Source: a virus (lineage: Duplodnaviria > Caudoviricetes). From it: a stretch of 64,000 bases of DNA. The notes under the pieces were generated by a model. That model searched no databases, had not been told where the DNA came from, and was given only the letters and a program-made list of their open reading frames with translations. A program made the translations under genes and the position numbers. The DNA lies in IMG/VR virus record IMGVR_UViG_3300017902_000306, positions 10,083-74,082 of that record; one strand, written 5' to 3'. This document shows, in pieces, positions 9,942-52,241 of this stretch. Within the stretch, counting starts at the first letter, position 1. Each line of letters begins with the position of its first letter.

Positions 9942-10546
9942 GACCCATTTCAATCAACAGTGATTTGACTAGAATGTTGGACGATTACATAAATTGGTTC
10001 AACAAAAAAGATTTTGATTTGCCGATGGATGAAAAGAGGTTCGGCGACAGGGACATGGAGTATTACTGTTCCAAAGAATATCTTGACCATGTAATGTCTG
10101 AATCGAAGAAACACAGAGGCCCTCCAGAGTATGCGAAGGTATGTGACTTTCATTTGACACACAAGACACCACAACAGGCAAGAGAAAAGTCATTAGAATT
10201 TTGTAAGGACTTGGCTGCATATCTTGGCGCCAAGTTTACCGCAGTTCACGTTTACTATCCCGAAGGTGGATATATGTCGTGGCATAACAATTGGGACTGT
10301 CCAGGCTACAATATACTACTATCTCATAGTGATGGTGGTGGATTCTTCAAGTATCTCACTGAAGATGGTTCTATTGAAACAATGAACGATCCTGCCGGAT
10401 GGAACGCAAAGGTTGGATATTACGGTGGCAAAGATGATCCATACTGGCACTGTGCTGGTTCTACTAGTCCTAGACAGACAATCGGATTTGTTATCCCCGA
10501 CAAGGACATGTGGGAAATGATGATAGAGGATATCAGTTATGCTTAG
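9938..10546 (+). CDS. Putative 2OG-Fe(II)/cupin-fold oxygenase
   Basis: YYPEGGYMSWHNN ... YWHCAG ... RQTIGF resembles the double-stranded beta-helix oxygenase pattern. Confidence 0.5.
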   Translation: MRPISINSDLTRMLDDYINWFNKKDFDLPMDEKRFGDRDMEYYCSKEYLDHVMSESKKHRGPPEYAKVCDFHLTHKTPQQAREKSLEFCKDLAAYLGAKFTAVHVYYPEGGYMSWHNNWDCPGYNILLSHSDGGGFFKYLTEDGSIETMNDPAGWNAKVGYYGGKDDPYWHCAGSTSPRQTIGFVIPDKDMWEMMIEDISYA

Positions 10547-11120
10547 TGACAAGGTAGCGATGTCTATGACAAAGTTCTTTCGGTTTTTTGCCGATACGTT
10601 CTTTGCTAAAAGGTATGGACATAGAGCAGTTGTTTTAGAAACCATTGCAGGGGTGCCTGGTATGGTAGCAGGGATGTGGTTACATCTAAAAAGTCTGCGT
10701 AAAGCAAAAACTGGATACGGGCCTACGATTCGTGAACTACTTGCAGAAGCAGAGAATGAACGTATGCACTTGATGTTCTTTATAGAAATTGCAAAACCAA
10801 ACTGGTTTGAGAGACTACTGATTCTCTTGGCGCAGTTTATATTCTGGCATTTTTATTTCATTATGTATCTCATTTCGCCACGGACTGCACATAGAATGAT
10901 TGCATACTTTGAAGAAGAGGCGGTCAGGAGTTATACGGAATATATGACACTGATTCAAGCTGGTGTGATACCAAACGTCAAGGCACCTCAACTAGCAATA
11001 GACTACTACGATATGCCACAGGATGCAAAGTTATGGGACATGGTTTATAATGTTCGCAATGACGAACTCAACCACTCCAAAGTAAATCATAGGATGGCGG
11101 ACAACTTATGTTCTCAATAA
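10539..11120 (+). CDS. aox: Alternative oxidase (ubiquinol oxidase, di-iron)
   Basis: RYGHRAVVLETIAGVPGMVAGM, EAENERMHL, HRMIAYFEEEAVRSYT and VRNDELNH supply all four iron-binding segments of AOX. Confidence 0.95.
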   Translation: MLSDKVAMSMTKFFRFFADTFFAKRYGHRAVVLETIAGVPGMVAGMWLHLKSLRKAKTGYGPTIRELLAEAENERMHLMFFIEIAKPNWFERLLILLAQFIFWHFYFIMYLISPRTAHRMIAYFEEEAVRSYTEYMTLIQAGVIPNVKAPQLAIDYYDMPQDAKLWDMVYNVRNDELNHSKVNHRMADNLCSQ

Positions 11121-11725
11121 ACTGGTTCATGGCCGATGAACAGTTGCAGAAGTATGATGGCATCTGGACAGGAGAAGTTACTTGGGATACTGTAAACTTC
11201 TATAAAGATTATGCTGGAACTCTATCCAACAATGAGAATCTAGCTGGACATCTTCAGAAACAAATAAAAATAGAAGATTTGCCTGTCACTATCCGTGATG
11301 ATATTATGAGAAACTTCCGAAGACCAGAAGTTACTGAATATGTGAGTAAATACAAGGATACGATGAATCCTATCCCACCGATCAAACTGGAGACAACGTG
11401 GGTAAACTATATGGAGAAAACTGAATTCAATCCTCTCCATAGACATGGTGGGTTGTTTTCTTTTGTGATATTCATTCAGATACCATACGACTTGTCAGAA
11501 GAAGACAAGGTATTTCCAGACACACCCGACAAGAAGACATCAAGGTTGGGGTTCGTATTCAATGAACCTCTTGCTGGCCCAGAAGAAATTACTCTGGATG
11601 TTGATGAAAGTTTTGTTGGTAAGATAATTTTGTTTGATGCCAAGTTGCCACATCTTGTGTATCCGTTCTACACATCTGATGAACATAGAATCACTGCGTC
11701 AGGCAATGTGGTGTTTGCACACTAG
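11108..11725 (+). CDS. Putative 2OG-Fe(II) oxygenase
   Basis: WVNYMEKTEFNPLHRH..FSFVIFIQIP ... GKIILFDAKLPHLVYPF...RITASGN. Confidence 0.75.
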   Translation: MFSINWFMADEQLQKYDGIWTGEVTWDTVNFYKDYAGTLSNNENLAGHLQKQIKIEDLPVTIRDDIMRNFRRPEVTEYVSKYKDTMNPIPPIKLETTWVNYMEKTEFNPLHRHGGLFSFVIFIQIPYDLSEEDKVFPDTPDKKTSRLGFVFNEPLAGPEEITLDVDESFVGKIILFDAKLPHLVYPFYTSDEHRITASGNVVFAH

Positions 11726-30232: not shown

Positions 30233-31486
30233 ATGAGCGTAGAAAGCAAAATCAGAGACTTTCTCAAGAAGGGTAAGGAGATCGAAGAATCTCTGCAACT
30301 CGCTGAAGAAGTCAATGAACTAGAAGAAAAGGCCGCAGCGGAGAACTTAAAGCCCAATGCAACGCCTGGAGATTCTACTAATCCTACACAGGGTAGCTCC
30401 AATCCTAACCCCGAAATGCAAGACCTCTCTGGAACTGGCGACAAGCATGGTGGATTAACTTCCCCCATCGGTAAAGCCGCTTCTGCAAAGTTGAGCAAGA
30501 TGGGTGAACTGGAGAACCAAGGTGCCGGTCAGGCTCCTAACTACGAAGGTGGCGAAGACACTGCCAGTGTTGTTGCACAACCTTCTTCAAAAGGTAACGT
30601 TCATCAAGAAGAAGTTGACGAGATCGACCCCTTCACTGGTGATGTGATTTCTGAAGACGAAGAAGTTGTTGCAGAAGAAGAAACCGAAGAAGAAGTTGAA
30701 GTTGTCGCAGAGGAAGAAGAAGTTGAGTCTGAGGAAGAATCAGATGAGTCAACAGAAGAAACTCTGTTTGAAACCGACATTCAAACTCTTTTTGCTGATG
30801 AAGAACATCTCTCAGAAGGTTTCAAGGTTAAGGCTGCGGAGTTGTTTGAGACAGTTGTAACTGCTCGCCTCGCAAACGAAATCGAAACAATCCAGACCGA
30901 ACTCGCAGAAGAAGCTGCTGCTGAAACTGAGAAGTTCAAGACCGACATGGTAGAGAAGATTGATTCTTACCTCAACTATGTTGCAGAGAACTGGATGAAG
31001 GAAAATGAACTCGCTATTGAACGTGGGTTACGCACAGAAATCACGGAAGACTTCATTAAGTCTCTCAAGACAGTTTTCCAAGAACATTATATTGAAGTGC
31101 CTGAAGAAAAGTATGATGTATTAGATGAAATGCAAAACGAAATTGAGGCTCTCAAGGGTAAACTCAACGAACAGATTGAGGCTACCGTTGATCTCAAAGG
31201 TCAAAACGAAGCAATGTTGCGACAGAAAGCTATCGCAGAGGCGTCTGAAGATTTGACCATGACCGAATCCGAGAAGTTGGCATCTCTTTTAGAAGATGTT
31301 GAGTTTGGTGATTCTGAAATTTTCGCTGAGAAGGTTGCAGTTGTTAAGGAAACTTACTTCCCGAAGCAAGGTGCATCTGATATCTCAGAGGATAAGTTGA
31401 CCGATACTGTTGACTCTAACTTCCTTGATGAAGGCAATTACATCAACAAGTATGCTCAGGCTATTTCAAAACAGATTAAAAAGTAA
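30233..31486 (+). CDS. gp22: Prohead scaffold protein
   Basis: Acidic; LSEGFK.KAAELFE, YLNYVAENW.KEN, FQEHYIEVPEEK. Confidence 0.92.
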   Translation: MSVESKIRDFLKKGKEIEESLQLAEEVNELEEKAAAENLKPNATPGDSTNPTQGSSNPNPEMQDLSGTGDKHGGLTSPIGKAASAKLSKMGELENQGAGQAPNYEGGEDTASVVAQPSSKGNVHQEEVDEIDPFTGDVISEDEEVVAEEETEEEVEVVAEEEEVESEEESDESTEETLFETDIQTLFADEEHLSEGFKVKAAELFETVVTARLANEIETIQTELAEEAAAETEKFKTDMVEKIDSYLNYVAENWMKENELAIERGLRTEITEDFIKSLKTVFQEHYIEVPEEKYDVLDEMQNEIEALKGKLNEQIEATVDLKGQNEAMLRQKAIAEASEDLTMTESEKLASLLEDVEFGDSEIFAEKVAVVKETYFPKQGASDISEDKLTDTVDSNFLDEGNYINKYAQAISKQIKK

Positions 31487-31492
31487 ACTTTT

Positions 31493-31500
31493 TATAAATA
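31493..31500 (+). promoter_or_regulatory. T4-type late promoter
   Basis: TATAAATA before gp23. Confidence 0.8.
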
Positions 31501-31539
31501 AACTTAGGTAAAACAAAAACCGAAATCAAGGAGACTACA

Positions 31540-32805
31540 ATGTATCTTTCTGAAGAAATCCAAAAGAAGTGGAGTCCAGTTCTGGATCATCCCGATTTGC
31601 AGGAAATTTCCGACCCGTATCGTAAGTCGGTAACTGCTGTAATTCTGGAGAACCAAGAAAAGGCTCTACAAGAAGAAAAGCAAGTCTTTTCTGAAGCAGT
31701 GCATGCCAACAACATGTCAGCTGCGATTGACACTTATGACCCCATCCTCATCAGTTTGGTTCGCCGTGCGTTGCCTAACCTGATGGCGTATGATGTCTGC
31801 GGTGTTCAACCGATGACTGGCCCCACTGGTCTTATCTTTGCGATGAAGTCGCATTATACTTCACAAACCGGCACAGAAGCTCTGTATAACGAAGCAGACA
31901 CCGACTTTGCTGGTGCTGGAACCCACGCTGGTTCCAACCCTGTTGATGGAACATACACAACAGGAACAGGTATCACTCGTGACAACGCTGAGTTGTTGGG
32001 TGACACCGTTACTCTTAACCAGATGGCATTCTCAATTGAGAAGACCACGGTTACTGCTAAGTCTCGTGCGTTGAAGGCAGAATACACTGTCGAACTCGCT
32101 CAAGACCTCAAGGCAGTTCACGGTCTGGATGCTGAGTCAGAGTTGTCAAACATTCTGTCTCAAGAAATCCTCGCTGAGATCAACCGTGAAGTCATCCGAA
32201 CCATCTACAAAGTTGCTAAGACGGGTGCTGCTTCAACTGCAACCGCTGGAACTTTTGACCTAGACGTTGATTCAAATGGTCGTTGGTCTGTAGAACGGTT
32301 CAAGGGTCTTCTCTTTAACATCGAAAGAGATGCTAACGTAATCGCTCAAGATACTCGTAGGGGCAAAGGTAACTTCATCATCTGTTCTTCAGATGTTGCA
32401 AGTGCTCTGTCAATGGCTGGTGTTCTTGACTACGCTCCCGCCCTCAACACTTCTCTGAATGTTGATGACACTGGTAACACTTTTGCAGGTGTTCTCAATG
32501 GTCGGTATCGTGTATACGTTGATCCTTATTCTGCAAACACTGGTGCTGCAAGTCAGTTCTACGTTGCTGGATACAAGGGCACATCACCTTACGATGCTGG
32601 TCTGTTCTATTGCCCATACGTTCCTCTGCAAATGGTTCGTGCGATTGACCCGTCTACTTTCCAACCTAAGATTGGATTCAAGACTCGTTACGGTATGATC
32701 GCTAACCCATATGTAACTCAGTCAGATGGAACTACTGATGCTGATACGTTCACTGCTGATCGTAACCAGTATTACCGTTCAGTCAAGGTAACAAACTTGA
32801 TGTAA
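31540..32805 (+). CDS. gp23: Major capsid protein
   Basis: LISLVRRALPNL.AYDVCGVQPMTGPTGLIFA, AKSRALKAEYTVELAQDLKAVHGLDAESEL, FQPKIGFKTRYG. Confidence 0.98.
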   Translation: MYLSEEIQKKWSPVLDHPDLQEISDPYRKSVTAVILENQEKALQEEKQVFSEAVHANNMSAAIDTYDPILISLVRRALPNLMAYDVCGVQPMTGPTGLIFAMKSHYTSQTGTEALYNEADTDFAGAGTHAGSNPVDGTYTTGTGITRDNAELLGDTVTLNQMAFSIEKTTVTAKSRALKAEYTVELAQDLKAVHGLDAESELSNILSQEILAEINREVIRTIYKVAKTGAASTATAGTFDLDVDSNGRWSVERFKGLLFNIERDANVIAQDTRRGKGNFIICSSDVASALSMAGVLDYAPALNTSLNVDDTGNTFAGVLNGRYRVYVDPYSANTGAASQFYVAGYKGTSPYDAGLFYCPYVPLQMVRAIDPSTFQPKIGFKTRYGMIANPYVTQSDGTTDADTFTADRNQYYRSVKVTNLM

Positions 32806-32834
32806 TAAAAAGAATCCCCACAAGGGACATTTTT

Positions 32835-32861
32835 AAGGGACTCTACGGAGTCCCTTTTTTT
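32835..32861 (+). terminator. Intrinsic terminator after gp23
   Basis: AAGGGACTC-TACG-GAGTCCCTT followed by a T tract; cUNCGg tetraloop. Confidence 0.88.
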
Positions 32862-32866
32862 ATGTG

Positions 32867-32874
32867 TATAAATA
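32867..32874 (+). promoter_or_regulatory. T4-type late promoter for the riboswitch-peptide unit
   Basis: TATAAATA directly after the gp23 terminator. Confidence 0.75.
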
Positions 32875-32920
32875 ATTATTGCCCACTCGGGCTCCATAAG
32901 TCATGGGTGAAAAGACTACA

Positions 32921-32982
32921 TTCGTTCATCCACCCTAAATGTAGCGGTGGACGGAAGTAGGCAATTCCGCCGAAGGAACGCA
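32921..32982 (+). ncRNA. Glutamine riboswitch (glnA RNA motif, class I)
   Basis: CGTTCA...GACGGAAGTAGG...CCGAAGGAACGC. P1 CGTTC/GAACG, P2 TCCACC/GGTGGA, AGUA/GAA E-loop, P3 GGC/GCC; SD GGGAGG follows ~10 nt later. Confidence 0.85.
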
Positions 32983-33003
32983 TCTTCTAAAGGGAGGTGT
33001 TAT

Positions 33004-33177
33004 ATGACTACACAACTAAACTACAGAGGCGTTAAGTATAACGAACTTATAACTCAAAAGGCAGAGATGCCTTTAGAGATGTTATATCGTGGCGCTAAAT
33101 ACGATCCTACTCAGAGACAACAGAATGTTCCTGCTAAATCTGGAATATACCGTGGTTCTAAGTGGAGTTTAGTCTAA
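33004..33177 (+). CDS. DUF4278-like 57-aa peptide
   Basis: MTTQLNYRGVKY...LYRGAKY...IYRGSKW; strong SD at 32992-32997; the listed ORF start (32947) lies inside the riboswitch. Confidence 0.8.
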   Translation: MTTQLNYRGVKYNELITQKAEMPLEMLYRGAKYDPTQRQQNVPAKSGIYRGSKWSLV

Positions 33178-33186
33178 GCTAAAAAG

Positions 33187-33212
33187 AAGGGCAACCTTGC
33201 GTTGCCCTTTTC
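33187..33212 (+). terminator. Intrinsic terminator
   Basis: AAGGGCAAC-CTTGC-GTTGCCCTT-TTC; A tract on the 5' side, so possibly bidirectional. Confidence 0.75.
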
Positions 33213-33220
33213 TCATCTCT

Positions 33221-33228
33221 TATAAATA
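33221..33228 (+). promoter_or_regulatory. T4-type late promoter
   Basis: TATAAATA just before gp3. Confidence 0.75.
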
Positions 33229-33233
33229 GAAGT

Positions 33234-33821
33234 ATGGCATATACACCGACAATCGCAATAAACCAAGGAACCCACACTGCTCAATCAAGTAGTGAGTTGG
33301 ATTACTTACGGCCTAATGGTTTTAAGTTCCAAGTGCATAACATACCGCATGTCGCATTTTTCTGTCAGGGTGCAAACATTCCAGATATTAGTATGGGATT
33401 TCCTGTTCAGACTACACCACTTTCTGACATACCATACCCAGGCGATAAGATTGCTTTCGGTGATCTAAACATTCGATTCCTCATTCAAGAAGACATGACA
33501 AACTACAAAGAGTTATATGATTGGATGATCGGATTGGGTTCGCCAGAAAAACACTCACAGTATACAGACTACATCAAGACACAAACATGGAGAACTGCGA
33601 GTGCAAGAAAAGACAAACAGGAAGCTCTCGCACAAGTAAGTGACGCAAGTTTGTTTGTCTTGGATTCAAACGACAATCCAAAGATAGAAATTATTTTCAA
33701 AGATTGTTTTCCAGTTGCTCTTGCCGGACTTGACTTTGATCTTTCTGGTGGAGACCAACCCTATTTTGTAGGAATCGCATCATTTAAATATCGTATATAT
33801 ACTATTAGACCTATGAGTTAA
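33234..33821 (+). CDS. gp3: Tail tube terminator/completion protein (gp3-like)
   Basis: YLRPNGFKF, FFCQGANIP.I, PYPGDKI.FG.L.IRFLIQEDM.NY.ELY.W; usual position after gp23. Confidence 0.8.
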   Translation: MAYTPTIAINQGTHTAQSSSELDYLRPNGFKFQVHNIPHVAFFCQGANIPDISMGFPVQTTPLSDIPYPGDKIAFGDLNIRFLIQEDMTNYKELYDWMIGLGSPEKHSQYTDYIKTQTWRTASARKDKQEALAQVSDASLFVLDSNDNPKIEIIFKDCFPVALAGLDFDLSGGDQPYFVGIASFKYRIYTIRPMS

Positions 33822-33835
33822 AATTTGGATTTATT

Positions 33836-34279
33836 ATGGCAACATTGATTGAACTTCAGTCTCAATGGGCTGAGGATTGTAAACTTGATGAATTAGACTT
33901 AGGTAGTGAATCTACCAGAACCCCCGTGTTACACTCAAAGTATGTAACCCTTCTTTCAAATTCCAAACTCCAACTCCGCAAAGCAGTCGCAGATTTGAAA
34001 CGACTTGAGAATATCAAGTCCGACTACTATCGGGGTGAGTTATCAAAGGAGGAACTTGATCAACTAGGATGGGAACCTTGGAGAAAGAACGCCGTGTTAC
34101 GATCTGACATGAGAGATCAGTTAGACAGTGACCCAGATGTTATCAAACAACAGGATAAAGTCTATTACCTAGAAACAACCGTTGATTTTTTGGATCGTGT
34201 TCTACGCAGTTTAAATAGTAGAGGATGGGACATCAAAAACGCAGTGGAGTGGAATAAGTTACAATCTGGCCTCATATGA
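33836..34279 (+). CDS. uvsY: Recombination mediator UvsY
   Basis: W.EDCKLD..DL..ES...P.LHSKY, R.WDIKNA.EW.K. Confidence 0.9.
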   Translation: MATLIELQSQWAEDCKLDELDLGSESTRTPVLHSKYVTLLSNSKLQLRKAVADLKRLENIKSDYYRGELSKEELDQLGWEPWRKNAVLRSDMRDQLDSDPDVIKQQDKVYYLETTVDFLDRVLRSLNSRGWDIKNAVEWNKLQSGLI

Positions 34280-35769
34280 TTTGGGTAAAACAAAAAGATA
34301 ACGTCCACGTTTATGTGGAAGCAGACGATGGCATAAGGAGAGAGATATCAGATTTCTTTACCTTTGAAGTCCCTGGCGCCAAGTTTATGCCATCATACCG
34401 TAATAGATATTGGGATGGTAAGATACGACTCTACAATGTAAACAAGTGTGAGTTGTATATCGGCTTGGTTCCCTACCTACTGGAGTTTGCAAAACAATTA
34501 GAATACAAAGTCCAAGTTGATCTTGAACCTTTTGGTGAGAAGATTACGAAGGAAGAAGTATCAGAATTTTGTGGTGCATTGAAACTGCACAGTCAAAAGA
34601 AACCAATTGAAGCGAGAGACTATCAACAGTCTGCGATTCACGAGGGTATCAACTCAGGTAGAACTTTACTACTGTCACCCACTGCAAGTGGTAAATCACT
34701 AATCATTTATTCACTGGTTAGATATCATCAAGCATTGGGTAGAAAACAATTGATCGTAGTTCCTACCACCTCACTGGTAGAACAAATGTATGGTGACTTT
34801 AGAGACTACTCCACTCACAACGGATTCAAAGTAGCAAAACATTGTCACAGAATTTACGGTGGGAAAGAAAAATCAAACGCCGCTGATGTAGTGATATCTA
34901 CATGGCAATCTATCTACAAGTTCCCACAGAAGTGGTTTGAACAGTTTGATGTGGTGTATGGTGACGAGGCTCACTTGTTCAAGGCAAAGTCATTGATGAC
35001 TCTCATGGATAAGTGTAAGAACGCACGTTTTAGAATCGGAACCACAGGAACCCTTGACGGAACAAAGACACACAAGTTGGTGTTAGAAGGTGTGTTTGGC
35101 CCAGTGTTCAAGGTAACAACCACTAAGAAATTGATGGACAGGAAGGAACTGGCAGACCTAAAAATTATTTGTATGATTATTGGATACAGTGATGAACAAA
35201 GAAAACTGGTATCCAAAATGACTTATCAAGAAGAAATGGACTTCCTAGTATCCAACCCAGAAAGGAACGACATTCTGGCGAAGCTGGCGGCGTCACAGAA
35301 GGGTAATACGCTGGTTTTATACCAGTATGTAGAAAAACACGGAGACCATCTACACAAGTTAATCAGTGGATACGCACATGGTAAGAAAGATGTTCACTTT
35401 GTATGGGGTGGAACAGATACAGAACAAAGAGAAGAAATTAGATACTTGACAGAACAATCAGATAATAGTATCATTGTTGCCTCATACGGAACCTTTTCTA
35501 CTGGTATAAATATAAGAAACCTACACAATGTGGTGTTTGCTTCACCAAGTAAGAGTAGGATCAGAAATCTACAGAGTATCGGTAGAGGTCTGAGAAAAGG
35601 TAACAACAAATCGTCATGTAATTTGTTTGATGTTGGTGATGACCTCTCTTGGAAGTCTAAGAAGAATTACACTTTGAACCATGTCTTAGACCGAATCAAA
35701 TTATACAATGAAGAAAACTTTGATTATAAAGTAATAAGGATATCGTCAGATGGGAACATGCAAACCTAG
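34276..35769 (+). CDS. uvsW: DNA/RNA helicase UvsW
   Basis: WDGKIRL, SPTASGKS, GDEAHLFKA, GTTGT, LQSIGRGLR. Confidence 0.96.
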   Translation: MIWVKQKDNVHVYVEADDGIRREISDFFTFEVPGAKFMPSYRNRYWDGKIRLYNVNKCELYIGLVPYLLEFAKQLEYKVQVDLEPFGEKITKEEVSEFCGALKLHSQKKPIEARDYQQSAIHEGINSGRTLLLSPTASGKSLIIYSLVRYHQALGRKQLIVVPTTSLVEQMYGDFRDYSTHNGFKVAKHCHRIYGGKEKSNAADVVISTWQSIYKFPQKWFEQFDVVYGDEAHLFKAKSLMTLMDKCKNARFRIGTTGTLDGTKTHKLVLEGVFGPVFKVTTTKKLMDRKELADLKIICMIIGYSDEQRKLVSKMTYQEEMDFLVSNPERNDILAKLAASQKGNTLVLYQYVEKHGDHLHKLISGYAHGKKDVHFVWGGTDTEQREEIRYLTEQSDNSIIVASYGTFSTGINIRNLHNVVFASPSKSRIRNLQSIGRGLRKGNNKSSCNLFDVGDDLSWKSKKNYTLNHVLDRIKLYNEENFDYKVIRISSDGNMQT

Positions 35770-36341: not shown

Positions 36342-36938
36342 ATGGCAAAGAAGAAAACAGAGAACAGGCATTACGTCAACAACAAAGAATTTCTGGCGGC
36401 GATGACTGAGTATCGCACTGCTAGGGTTGCTGCTGAGGAAGCAGGAGAAACACCACCCCGTGTATCAAACTACATTGGTGAGTGTTTTGTCAAGATTGCA
36501 AACCACCTCGCATACAAATCTAACTTTGTAAACTACACCTTCAGAGAAGAAATGATTCTGGATGGTATTGAAAATTGTATCACATACATCAATAACTTTG
36601 ATCCTGCCAAATCATCCAATCCTTTTGCATACTTCACACAGATAACCTACTACGCCTTCTTGCGTAGGATTCAGAAAGAAAAGAAACAACTGGATGCTAA
36701 ATACAGATACATTCAGAGTTTAGACTTACAAAACATGATGGATGAACTTGCCGCTGATGGGGGGTCTAACGAGTATCTTGAGTATATGAAGCGACAGATT
36801 GAGGAAGCAGACAAACAGAACGAGAAGTTTGCCAACGAAGGTAAGAACATTCCAAAACGAAGACCTAAATACTTCAATGACAAAGAGGCTCTTGCAGTTG
36901 CTAAGGAGAAAATTGACGCACTCAAAGATGCCCCGTAA
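36342..36938 (+). CDS. gp55: Late sigma factor
   Basis: HYVNNKEFL, YIGECF.KIA.HL, NYTFREEMI.DGIENC, NPFAYFTQI.YYAFLRRIQKEKKQ. Confidence 0.96.
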   Translation: MAKKKTENRHYVNNKEFLAAMTEYRTARVAAEEAGETPPRVSNYIGECFVKIANHLAYKSNFVNYTFREEMILDGIENCITYINNFDPAKSSNPFAYFTQITYYAFLRRIQKEKKQLDAKYRYIQSLDLQNMMDELAADGGSNEYLEYMKRQIEEADKQNEKFANEGKNIPKRRPKYFNDKEALAVAKEKIDALKDAP

Positions 36939-50238: not shown

Positions 50239-50862
50239 ATGAATGGTGTGATTGAAGTGGGGCAAAAAGTCCCAATGGATGTCGTGTGGAATACACGAGT
50301 CAAATGCCCTGAGATGGTAAGTGCTGGAGTAGAAAACCCATACAAGTGGGAATCAGTAACTTCATCTGATATCTTTGCAGGCAAAAGGGTAATTGTTTTT
50401 GCTCTGCCTGGAGCCTTTACTCCGACTTGTTCCTCTAAACAACTACCCGAATTTGAAAACAACTATCAGATGTTCAAGCGAGCGGGTGTCGATGAGGTTT
50501 ATTGTCTATCAGTGAACGACAGTTTCGTAATGAACATGTGGTTCCGATACCAACAGATAAATGGAGTCAAACCCATCCCCGATGGTTCTGGTTTGTTTAC
50601 TGCTGAAATGGGTATGATGGTAGACAAAGATAACTTATCATTTGGTTCTCGCTCTTGGCGATACTCTATGCTAGTCAATGATGGTGTAGTAGAGAAGGCA
50701 TTTGTCGAAGATGGTTTCGGTGATAACATTGGTGATGATCCTTTTGAGGTATCTGATGCGTTGACAATGTTCAACTATGTTACCACTGATAGTCCTGTTG
50801 GCCGTCAACTGACCTTGAACCTTGAAGAACGTTTGAATTCCAAGGAACAGATTGGATCATAA
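50239..50862 (+). CDS. Peroxiredoxin (Prx5/Redoxin type)
   Basis: LPGAFTPTCS, YCLSVNDSFVM..W, GSRSWRYSM.V.DG. Confidence 0.9.
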   Translation: MNGVIEVGQKVPMDVVWNTRVKCPEMVSAGVENPYKWESVTSSDIFAGKRVIVFALPGAFTPTCSSKQLPEFENNYQMFKRAGVDEVYCLSVNDSFVMNMWFRYQQINGVKPIPDGSGLFTAEMGMMVDKDNLSFGSRSWRYSMLVNDGVVEKAFVEDGFGDNIGDDPFEVSDALTMFNYVTTDSPVGRQLTLNLEERLNSKEQIGS

Positions 50863-51613
50863 ATTGGCAAAAAGAATTGTTATGGTGTCGGGGGGTTTCG
50901 ATCCCCTACACGGTGGTCACATCAACCTACTAGAAAGTGCTAAAAAACTTGGTGATGTCCTAGTAGTCGGTCTCAACAGTGATGATTGGTTGTTCCGCAA
51001 AAAGGGAAAACCTTTCATGGACTTCTGGCAAAGACTCGACATCATGGCAAATCTAAAAATGGTTGATCACGTTGTCCCATTCGATGACGATGATGATACC
51101 GCAACACAATTCATTCTTGATTGCAAAAAAAATTACGGCAAAGATTGCATTTACATTTTTGCCAATGGGGGAGATCGGAGGTGTTCTAATATTCCAGAAC
51201 GTGTTGATGGTGTGATACAACAAACTGGAGTTGGGGGAGACAATAAAGCAAACTCCAGTTCTCACATCTGCCGAACAAAAAGAGATTGGGGATACTTTGA
51301 CGAACTCCTCAAGTATCCTGATGCGAAAGTAAAACTTCTTAACGTAGAACCAAATGACGGAATATCATATCAGAGACATTTTGAAAGAGGTGAGTTCTGG
51401 TTTGTCCTTGAGGGCAAGGCACTAGTCAAACATGCAATAGGTCACGAGTCGAACTATGAAAATCACATCTTGACAAAACATGATTACTTTAGTATAATGC
51501 CTTATCACTGGCATCAAGTTACAAACATTGGTGATGAACCTTTGAAAATTTTAGAGATACAATATGGTAGTTATCTTGAAGAAGATGACATTGAACGTGA
51601 GGAGATTCTATGA
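50852..51613 (+). CDS. Cytidylyltransferase fused to a mannose-6-P-isomerase-type cupin
   Basis: SGGFDPLHGGH, FANGGDR, then SYQRH..R.E.WFV..G...HQ..N...LEIQYG.Y.EEDDI.R. Confidence 0.85.
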   Translation: MDHKLAKRIVMVSGGFDPLHGGHINLLESAKKLGDVLVVGLNSDDWLFRKKGKPFMDFWQRLDIMANLKMVDHVVPFDDDDDTATQFILDCKKNYGKDCIYIFANGGDRRCSNIPERVDGVIQQTGVGGDNKANSSSHICRTKRDWGYFDELLKYPDAKVKLLNVEPNDGISYQRHFERGEFWFVLEGKALVKHAIGHESNYENHILTKHDYFSIMPYHWHQVTNIGDEPLKILEIQYGSYLEEDDIEREEIL

Positions 51614-51783
51614 GAAAGAAGGGTGTGAATGATCGGCGCAAGGTTGCGCTGGCAAACTTGGAAAAGGCTAAGTTCTTCCCAAAGAAGATCAAGTCTGGTA
51701 AGAAGATGGTGGAACGTTCCGAAGAAACTTGGAACGAGAAACGCCTGCAACAAATCGAAACTCTTGAAAAAAGAATTCGATGA
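51610..51783 (+). CDS. Small basic protein (not in the ORF track)
   Basis: GGAG RBS; MRKKGVNDRRKVALANLEKAKFFPKK...; ATGA overlaps at both ends. Confidence 0.55.
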   Translation: MRKKGVNDRRKVALANLEKAKFFPKKIKSGKKMVERSEETWNEKRLQQIETLEKRIR

Positions 51784-52241
51784 AAGAATTTGATTACAGT
51801 TTTGATTACAAGTCTCTTGACTTTACAGATCAGGAGACTCGCAAACTGTATCGTATCGGCAGGGGTGAACAAGGTGTTCTTCTGGTTCGCCCCTACACCG
51901 ATTTGATTTGTGCTCACTGGAGATTCAAAACACCAGAAGAAGCAAAAGAATCCAGTGACCGAATCTATTCTATGTTCAAACAATACAAGCAAAGTGATGA
52001 TTTTATTGGCATGGACATGGCACGCAAGTTCCTAGAGATGGGATTCACTCGTGCGAGAAGGTATGCAAACCACAACGATGGCAAAAAGTATGACAGTGAA
52101 GGGAATGTGAAACCGCAAGAACCCGATTGGAATACCAGTAAGTATGCTATCGCTGCAAGAATCTTCAAGAAGGTTCGTGACTTGGCTGCATACGATGAAG
52201 ATTATTTGGTTATGAGAAAAGAGTGGAGATCGAATGAATGA
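51780..52241 (+). CDS. DUF4385-family protein
   Basis: YRIGRGEQGVLLV.PY...HWRFKTP, GMDMARKFLEMG.TRARRYANH. Confidence 0.85.
   Translation: MKEFDYSFDYKSLDFTDQETRKLYRIGRGEQGVLLVRPYTDLICAHWRFKTPEEAKESSDRIYSMFKQYKQSDDFIGMDMARKFLEMGFTRARRYANHNDGKKYDSEGNVKPQEPDWNTSKYAIAARIFKKVRDLAAYDEDYLVMRKEWRSNE

Follow-up and report, generated by a model that had tools for sequence, protein, structure and literature searches.

To our knowledge, no riboswitch class other than the glutamine riboswitches is known to read the nitrogen status of the cell directly. The underlying glnA motif has been known since 2010, when it was described on the basis of cyanobacteria and marine metagenomes (PMC2864571), and its link to DUF4278 and gifB as well as its ON function were shown in 2018 (Klähn et al., PMC6212724). 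Glutamine riboswitches have also been listed in the genomes of T4-like cyanophages (PMC9964418), reported in the phages Melnitz and Mosig and in pelagimyophage metagenome-assembled viral genomes (MAVGs; Buchholz et al. 2022, PMC9004378), and mentioned for SAR86 (PMC12379486). Here, we analysed a 64,000-nt stretch of viral DNA, referred to as the window (positions 10,083 to 74,082 of the 74-kb IMG/VR virus record IMGVR_UViG_3300017902_000306, CheckV completeness 45%), in which a type 1 glutamine riboswitch aptamer precedes the gene of a 57-aa DUF4278 peptide between gp23 and gp3. We read the window as part of a marine T4-like myovirus, in which riboswitch and peptide constitute a self-contained late transcription unit of ~345 nt in the gp23–gp3 intergenic gap that would act as a translational glutamine-ON switch, and we give this core reading a probability of about 0.8. 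An original prediction, made for this locus from the sequence, had further regarded it as an extension of the glutamine circuit to heterotroph-infecting phages; this step had already been published for Melnitz (host OM43), Mosig (host SAR11) and the pelagimyophage MAVGs (PMC9004378). Sequences used for comparison are labelled L### (loci and contigs) and G### (genome records).

The aptamer matches the Rfam model RF01739 at positions 32921–32984 on the plus strand over the full model length (1–53 of 53), with 60.0 bits against a gathering score of 35 and an E-value of 1e-10, which settles the predicted glnA-type assignment; it is the sole Rfam match across the 64-kb window. The three helices P1 (32923–32927/32976–32980), P2 (32929–32934/32946–32951) and P3 (32960–32962/32969–32971) are arranged around the E-loop core ACGGAAGUA / GAAGGAACG, and the conserved strings ACGGAAGUA and GAAGGAACGC are intact. 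Relatives of the cassette carry compensatory changes in these helices. P2 reads UCCACC/GGUGGA in the window, UUCAC/GUGAA in L173 and UUCACU/AGUGAA in L066, while P3 is GGC/GCC in the window and AGUG/CGCU in L173, the aptamer of which scores 58.5 bits. Judged by its sequence, the element is a genuine type 1 glutamine riboswitch of the known class.

The unit begins with a T4-type late promoter, TATAAATA, at 32867–32874 (plus strand), which is separated by a 130-nt leader from the Shine–Dalgarno (SD) sequence of the peptide gene. The window contains 13 copies of this octamer, every one of them on the plus strand, against an expectation of 1.8, and none of 100 shuffles gets to 13. Copies stand 5′ of the scaffold gene, gp23, the cassette and the gp3-position gene, and the window encodes a gp55-like late sigma factor (36342–36938; phrog_234, 198.7 bits), so that both the enrichment of the octamer before late genes and the matching sigma factor of a T4-type late unit are present. 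Homologous cassettes carry TATAAATA, GATAAATA, CATAAATA or TCTAAATA in the equivalent promoter position. Upstream, the unit is bordered by an intrinsic terminator 3′ of gp23 (32835–32862, plus strand), consisting of a hairpin with a 9-bp stem and a 4-nt loop (32835–32856) and a T run; an equivalent hairpin with T run precedes the cassette also in L173, L341 and L066. At its downstream end lies a terminator-like hairpin (33187–33209, plus strand), and a matching hairpin is located 3′ of the peptide gene in L330. The plus-strand U tract of the downstream hairpin is weak, which is why the terminator scan scores it on the minus strand only; of the terminator that had been predicted for the unit itself, the hairpin is therefore in place, but the score belongs to the opposite strand. 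The predicted gp3 promoter TATAAATA is present on the plus strand, at 33221–33228, one base before the position that had been implied. Terminator, promoter, aptamer, SD, 57-aa open reading frame (ORF) and downstream hairpin were otherwise all found where the original prediction had placed them, and the late promoter, the flanking terminators and the gp55-like sigma factor bear out its description of a self-contained unit beside gp23.

The conserved partner of the SD is the 3′ tail located directly after P1. In this expression platform (32981–32999, plus strand), the anti-SD tail CAUCUUCU (32981–32988) pairs with the SD GGGAGGUG (32992–32999) across a 3-nt loop, and the minimum free energy (MFE) fold of the whole leader shows the SD paired to the tail with P2 intact. 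Among the cassettes compared for SD pairing (L173/L338/L341, L330–L335/L339/L340, L045 and L066), compensatory variants of this helix are CAUCUCU/GGAGGUG in L330 and CAUCUC/GAGAUG in L173 and L341, and the tail–SD duplex energies amount to −9.0 kcal/mol in the window, −9.0 kcal/mol in L330 and −8.7 kcal/mol in L173. We additionally compared 89 distinct viral glutamine-aptamer leaders obtained from a pattern scan of IMG/VR. The first tail nucleotide, C32981 in the window, is a C in 88 of these 89 leaders and is paired in the tail MFE fold in 70 of them, usually with a G 2 nt before the AUG. The leaders hold 29 variants of the tail–SD helix, with CG, UA, UG and AU alternating at positions 3–5, and the mean duplex energy of −6.9 kcal/mol compares with −2.5 kcal/mol for control 10-mers (Mann–Whitney p 2e-31); the window follows this pattern with −8.2 kcal/mol. 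A linchpin C directly 3′ of P1 is hence the first nucleotide of a helix that occludes the ribosome-binding site (RBS). For gifB of Synechocystis, the published model proposes that the C after P1 is the partner in a long-range G–C pair formed on glutamine binding and that this C and the following bases pair with the RBS, with melting by the ligand being postulated, and the ON direction of the glutamine response was shown by reporter (PMC6212724). Since the conserved tail–SD helix fits this published model, we read the window as a translational glutamine-ON switch, and the ON direction that had been predicted agrees with the same model.

We propose a model in which the gp55-type late machinery would start the transcript a few bases 3′ of TATAAATA, giving a leader in which a 5′-terminal hairpin, a pseudoknot, the type 1 aptamer and the SD-sequestering tail helix would follow each other. 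At low glutamine, the tail helix (CAUCUUCU, starting from the linchpin C32981) would be closed on the SD and the 57-aa peptide would not be made. Upon glutamine binding, the linchpin C would be pulled into the long-range G–C pair of the aptamer; the helix attached to P1 would then melt, the SD would become exposed and the peptide would be translated. Several points weigh against this model. The two-dimensional energy model keeps the SD hairpin even with the aptamer fold imposed and C32981 unpaired, and since it fails to reproduce the melting, this step is taken from the published tertiary-structure argument. Due to the weak plus-strand U tract of the downstream hairpin, read-through into the next gene is possible. 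The role of the peptide is a guess, because the IF7-like region with the residues that inactivate glutamine synthetase (GS) is missing from it (PMC6316151), and its structural model reaches only moderate confidence (mean pLDDT 69, pTM 0.24). While aptamer identity, peptide family, promoter and terminator motifs, the conserved anti-SD helix and the patchy distribution are shown by the sequences, ligand response, ON direction, timing and peptide function are all inferred. It should be noted that Logan contigs from four metatranscriptome runs, mapped on 31400–34300, cover gp23 (31400–32757) and include none over the cassette, while contigs of this kind cannot show absence.

The peptide gene extends from 33004 to 33177 on the plus strand. 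We took the ATG at 33004 as its start because of the strong SD there, and rejected a 76-aa ORF from GTG 32947, which overlaps the aptamer and is a mere same-frame upstream extension. The product is basic (pI 9.8, 9 K+R), contains three YRG motifs and matches the Pfam family DUF4278 (PF14105) with 34.8 bits against a cut-off of 25.3, so that the aptamer does precede a DUF4278 peptide, as had been suggested; the L173 homologue scores 30.5 bits. Homologues are 71% (P0001, L330) and 41% (L173) identical. The peptide aligns to the three YRG motifs in the N-terminal domain of cyanobacterial IF17-type proteins and also to stand-alone cyanobacterial peptides of 56–58 aa that are located behind the type 1 glutamine aptamer. 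AlphaFold2, run with a 16-sequence alignment, arranges it as three β-hairpins with the YRG motifs at the turns. Most likely, although this is a guess, the peptide would modulate host nitrogen metabolism late in infection in dependence on nitrogen status.

A more specific role, which the original prediction had implied by connecting the unit to GS, would be that of an IF17/IF7 mimic, a GS inactivating factor that shuts down host GS at high glutamine late in infection. We regard this as rather unlikely. The wiring is as in gifB, where a glutamine aptamer precedes a DUF4278 gene (PMC6212724), the basic character of the peptide resembles that of the inactivating factors (IFs), which bind GS electrostatically, and the N-terminus of IF17 is reported to improve GS inactivation (PMC6316151). 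However, the phage peptide does not extend beyond its third YRG motif, and the alignment with IF17-type proteins shows that their C-terminal IF7-like segment, ARxLM..KRQQxML.R.AxEVG, is absent from it, and with it the IF7-homologous region with the required arginines and lysines that characterises IF17 and IF7. In IF17, the GS-contacting residues sit in this IF7-like part, whereas DUF4278 is the N-terminal moiety, which contributes to the stability of the protein and is not required for inactivating GS (PMC6316151); the phage product therefore corresponds to this moiety alone. For the equivalent short DUF4278 peptides of Prochlorococcus, function is unproven (PMC6212724). Furthermore, pairs of IF and GS co-evolve and are specific, and DUF4278 did not turn up in any of 30 genomes from the SAR86 family that has the same leader motif as the phage unit. 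As the peptide stops where IF17 enters its IF7-like segment, such mimicry is possible but not supported by the sequence, and we retain the broader role as a putative modulator.

The leader motif shared with SAR86 is a conserved 5′ hairpin and pseudoknot filling 32881–32917, which the original prediction had passed over. The 5′-terminal hairpin GCCC-ACUC-GGGC (32881–32892, plus strand) lies at the predicted transcript start and forms in the MFE fold. Its sequence varies by lineage but always pairs, as GCAUC/GAUGC in L173, GUACC/GGUAC in L330, GUGCUUAC/GUAAGCAC in L045 and GAGAGA/UCUCUC in the SAR86 locus L225. The adjoining stretch 32893–32920 shows 90% identity in a comparison of the window with L173, against only 68% for the two aptamers, and folds into a small H-type pseudoknot (32893–32917, plus strand). 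In its stem 1, UCCAU (32893–32897) pairs with AUGGG (32903–32907) around a loop of 4–5 nt, and the loop nucleotides 32899–32902 (AGUC) pair with 32914–32917 (GACU) across an A-rich linker. Over 22 instances, 97% of the cells are paired, compared with 25–37% in slid controls, and the covariation score is 0.524 against 0.125 in shuffles (0/500). The outer pair of stem 1 alternates between AU, CG, UG and UA, and the helix between loop and anti-loop between (A)GUC/GAC(U), CUCC/GGAG, UUCC/GGAA, UAAC/GUUA and CAC/GUG; as the search pattern itself dictated the four inner pairs of stem 1, the evidence consists of the outer pair and the pseudoknot helix only. A structural regular expression run over 3.1 Mb detected 14 sites, 13 of which lie 20–80 nt upstream of a glutamine aptamer. 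In an E-value scan of the leader and of a four-fold pseudoknot array on the viral contig L429, no Rfam match to the pseudoknot was obtained.

The pseudoknot pattern matches 66 times in 31 of 151 genomes of the SAR86 order, where the reversed pattern gives 2 matches, and once in 61 genomes of a Pelagibacterales-type order. In SAR86, the leaders of glnA, of a GSII-like gene and of porins have the pseudoknot 5′ of tandem glutamine aptamers, and the element also precedes the gene of a 43-aa basic peptide in a cassette architecture like that of the phage unit. The SAR86 genomes G010 and G013 (L383, L382, L386, L391) each hold 6–7 glutamine aptamers, mostly tandem or triple, and 1–3 pseudoknot copies stand before the aptamers in their glnA (GSI), GSII-like and porin-like leaders. 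The array on L429 (4806–4908, minus strand) consists of CATAAATA followed by four tandem pseudoknots, one with the stem GCAU/AUGC, and then an SD, a 29-aa basic peptide and a terminator; as it contains no glutamine aptamer, the pseudoknot can apparently act without one. Candidates for its role are a 5′-end protective cap, a helper stacking on P1 or a separate sensor. We put forward only tentatively that 32893–32917 represents an undescribed H-type pseudoknot RNA, encountered in the searched DNA in one SAR86 lineage and in this family of phage cassettes, which acts alongside glutamine aptamers, be it as a second input, a P1 stabiliser or a protein-binding site, and which marks this phage clade as SAR86 phages. 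If this were true, SAR86 phages would have joined a nitrogen-sensing leader of the SAR86 type to a DUF4278 peptide of the cyanobacterial type. The cassette does look like a mosaic of such a leader and such a peptide, given that DUF4278 was not found in the 30 SAR86-family genomes.

Regarding the host, gp23 (31540–32805 including the stop codon, plus strand; Pfam Gp23, 469 bits) is 69% identical to its counterpart in Melnitz, whose host is OM43, and 67% and 66% identical to those of HTVC008M and Mosig, which have SAR11 hosts, whereas identities to cyanophages reach at most 63%. In the gp23 tree, the window is placed in a well-supported uncultured clade of its own, distinct from that of the cyanophages. 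The best match among cultured references is Melnitz for 30 ORFs of the contig, HTVC008M for 21 and the cyanophage S-SM2 for 15. Neither psbA nor psbD (PF00124) was found in the contig or in the complete records G002 (gp23 80%, same subclade) and G005, nor in the relatives or the contigs of the other cassette lineage; these latter fragments being incomplete, the result counts for the two complete records only. In view of these identities, the tree, the ORF matches and the psbA/psbD result, a cyanobacterial host is unlikely, so that the original prediction was probably right in assuming a non-cyanobacterial one; the leader suggests a SAR86 host or gene flow from SAR86. It would nevertheless be conceivable that the host is a cyanobacterium, with the cassette being nothing more than a cyanophage copy of the host's glutamine riboswitch–DUF4278 module, since the DUF4278 family is cyanobacterial, the aptamer accompanies two-YRG peptides on many S-SM2-like cyanophage contigs, the GC content of 41% equals that of S-SM2 and several genes have their best match there, e.g. 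DUF4385 at 71%. We consider this improbable, because the gp23 clade, the gp23 identities, the majority of ORF best matches and the missing psbA/psbD all point elsewhere and the leader pseudoknot occurs otherwise in SAR86 and not in the cyanobacterial loci sampled.

For the switch itself, the original prediction had proposed a different anti-SD, namely the 5′ strand of P2 (CCACCCU, 32930–32936), which would pair with AGGGAGG in the absence of glutamine and release the SD once the aptamer folds. Such mutually exclusive pairing would make a classical ON switch, and in the window the duplex is feasible, as its energy of −8.2 kcal/mol is near that of the tail–SD duplex. However, the P2–SD pairing weakens to −6.6 kcal/mol and changes its register in L330, despite an identical aptamer, and is not conserved in L173 (−6.3 kcal/mol), while the tail–SD helix is retained by compensatory change and the MFE fold of the leader leaves P2 intact. 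P2 is hence a decidedly improbable SD partner compared with the tail after P1. A further helix, AGUCAU/AUGACU, between leader and start codon can be drawn in five cassette variants, each of them marginal against shuffles (fraction 0.03–0.22), and is not general over 100 leaders (p 0.006 against permuted partners, 0.16 against shuffles), leaving it a weak hint. We also considered an upstream mini-ORF (ATGGGTGAAAAG..., 11 codons), which was rejected as it is without an SD and not kept as an ORF in L045, L225 and L173.

A survey of the gp23–gp3 interval revealed a patchy occurrence of the cassette across related phages. In most of the best 80 gp23 relatives in IMG/VR (61–85% identity), the gap measures ~100 nt and contains no aptamer, and L173 is the only one of the 80 with the cassette in this gap. 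L045 and L066, whose gp23 genes are more distant, also hold it there, and the four gp23 lineages with the cassette in the gap (window, L173/L341, L045 and L066) are scattered in the gp23 tree; L336 is a noisy long-read copy and essentially the window's own phage. The closest relatives of the window, L123–L128 including the complete 171-kb genome G002, are without the cassette. In a further group of contigs (L330–L335, the 91-kb contig L339 and L340), the cassette occupies another site, after an unrelated 466-aa virion-type gene, and the other genes on these contigs have their best matches in Melnitz or HTVC008M. Here pseudoknot and aptamer (92 nt) are 100% identical to the window, compared with 78% for the ORF at DNA and 71% at protein level, which indicates that the RNA part is more constrained than the coding part. 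From the occurrences in the gap and at the other site, the unit seems to move as a block from promoter to terminator, and since four gp23 lineages and the other site carry it while the nearest relatives do not, it looks like a mobile module, a 'moron'. Neither the cassette DNA (blastn, distant mode) nor the peptide (tblastn) had a match in 50,697 phage records. That the unit is a decaying or silent hitch-hiker without regulated expression, as its lack in the closest relatives might suggest, is highly improbable in view of the intact ORF, the perfectly conserved aptamer, a leader and aptamer that stay 100% identical across phages while the ORF diverges without breaks, and a design common to five lineages.

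The interval also holds other insertions. In HTVC008M, the gp23–gp3 gap contains an 85-aa hypothetical ORF (75559–75816; L204 4317–4574), and no RF01739 match was obtained anywhere in the HTVC008M genome; in several IMG/VR relatives the gaps span 0.3–2.7 kb. It seems that this gap generally serves small cassettes as a landing site. In the window, the gp3-position gene (33234–33821, plus strand, ATG at 33234) encodes a 195-aa protein of the tail-tube/tail-completion family and is followed by the UvsY and UvsW genes. Elsewhere, the window encodes an alternative oxidase family protein (10539–11120; Pfam AOX, 243.9 bits), for which tblastn finds no homologue in Melnitz, HTVC008M, S-SM2 and G002, with an adjoining 2-oxoglutarate-Fe(II) oxygenase (11108–11725), and a fusion of a cytidylyltransferase with a mannose-6-phosphate isomerase-type cupin (50852–51613), next after which lies a DUF4385 protein (region 50852–52241) that is 71% identical to a protein of S-SM2.

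Over 120 viral contigs carry the aptamer (L002–L121 are IMG/VR contigs holding the aptamer core), and the ORFs behind these viral aptamers comprise at least seven small-peptide families, including YRG/DUF4278. The others are peptides of ~30 aa with 'TLWCY/WxxYCR', of 64 aa with 'NRFDHLHK..INGxGTSGY', of 49 aa with 'TKYQ..LPxYIxDNPFYP', often behind tandem aptamers, of 50 aa with '..SRPRCEKNILSDDPRLQKI', of 32 aa with 'KTKNNWQLVLIK' and of 78 aa with 'YPYFRV..WLPPRWCH'. The seven non-YRG representatives scanned, all from families other than the 78-aa one, had no Pfam match. Tandem glutamine aptamers also occur on contigs from SAR116, Pelagibacteraceae, Rhodobacterales and alphaproteobacterial single-amplified genomes (L217, L234, L258, L264, L269, L272, L280). 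These alphaproteobacterial tandems share a conserved long spacer (..GCGGAUCUUA..CCAUAGCUAAGCAUG..) and lie ~100 nt before signal-peptide-like ORFs (MLKKSIYFISI...), which looks like a version with a different expression platform. In S-SM2 (GU071095.1 186779–186824; L362), RF01739 matches below threshold with 28.5 bits against 35, perhaps a divergent or split aptamer.

Four aspects appear to be new here, namely the autonomous late-promoter cassette and its mobility, the generality of the linchpin-C/SD helix in phage copies, the DUF4278 payload in a non-cyanophage lineage, and the pseudoknot. The first would mean that a phage can bring a nitrogen sensor under the control of a late promoter of its own, in a portable unit of ~345 nt which moves between lineages and sites. 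The second makes the SD-occluding helix with its linchpin C a general, covarying platform in phage copies and supports the mechanism proposed for cyanobacteria. The last concerns SAR86, an abundant uncultured ocean clade, for which we know of no isolated phage. The pseudoknot ties the cassette to this clade, and if the link holds, it would offer a sequence handle for SAR86 phages and be a candidate for a new regulatory RNA in nitrogen control. For the stand-alone DUF4278 peptides, the phage version with its simple late-expression context could moreover be a convenient test object.

In comparison with the described systems, the window shares with gifB of Synechocystis sp. PCC 6803 the type 1 aptamer, the downstream DUF4278 sequence, the proposed platform formed by the RBS and the C after P1 with the bases next to it, and the translational ON direction assigned to it (PMC6212724). 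It differs in being phage-borne, in its T4-type late promoter instead of NtcA control, in a product that consists of the DUF4278 moiety alone, and in the extra 5′ hairpin and pseudoknot before the aptamer. Loci of the PMM1846/yfr6 type in Prochlorococcus likewise combine a short stand-alone DUF4278 peptide with glutamine-ON control, but are chromosomal and use the type 2 (Downstream-peptide) aptamer RF01704, whereas the window carries RF01739 on a phage. Cyanomyovirus cassettes (PMC9964418; S-SM2-like IMG/VR contigs) resemble the window in joining a phage aptamer to a YRG peptide; their peptides have two YRG motifs, they reside in S-SM2-like genomes at other loci, and those sampled are without the pseudoknot leader.

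Melnitz, Mosig and the MAVGs also have RF01739 in T4-like marine phages of heterotrophs. The Melnitz aptamer, however, is located next to ssrA and not in the gp23–gp3 gap, and the downstream peptides are an unannotated 32-aa ORF in Melnitz and the 51-aa Mosig_00116 in Mosig, in contrast to DUF4278 in the window. The published account reads the switch as control of transfer-messenger RNA (tmRNA) and describes no DUF4278, late-promoter cassette or pseudoknot (PMC9004378). In Melnitz (MZ577097.1 46398–46565; L208 1000–1165), we observed the aptamer (52.8 bits), an anti-SD helix, the SD GGGGAGAG and then the plus-strand 32-aa ORF (MTLYQQWCYLKAQ...), where the record annotates only a minus-strand ORF. 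Because this small ORF follows the aptamer, the tmRNA (ssrA) reading probably needs revision, and the Melnitz riboswitch probably controls the 32-aa peptide rather than the ssrA tmRNA. As ARAGORN finds no tRNA or tmRNA within the window, an ssrA adjacency as in Melnitz does not apply to it. The SAR86 chromosomal cassette (G041:C2 near 175 kb; L225) shares with the phage unit the 5′ hairpin, a GUC-type pseudoknot, glutamine aptamer(s), a small basic peptide and a terminator, and has an anti-SD helix of its own, CAUCUUUU/AAAAGGAGAUG; it differs from the phage unit in its tandem aptamers, its sigma-70-like promoter and its unrelated 43-aa peptide.

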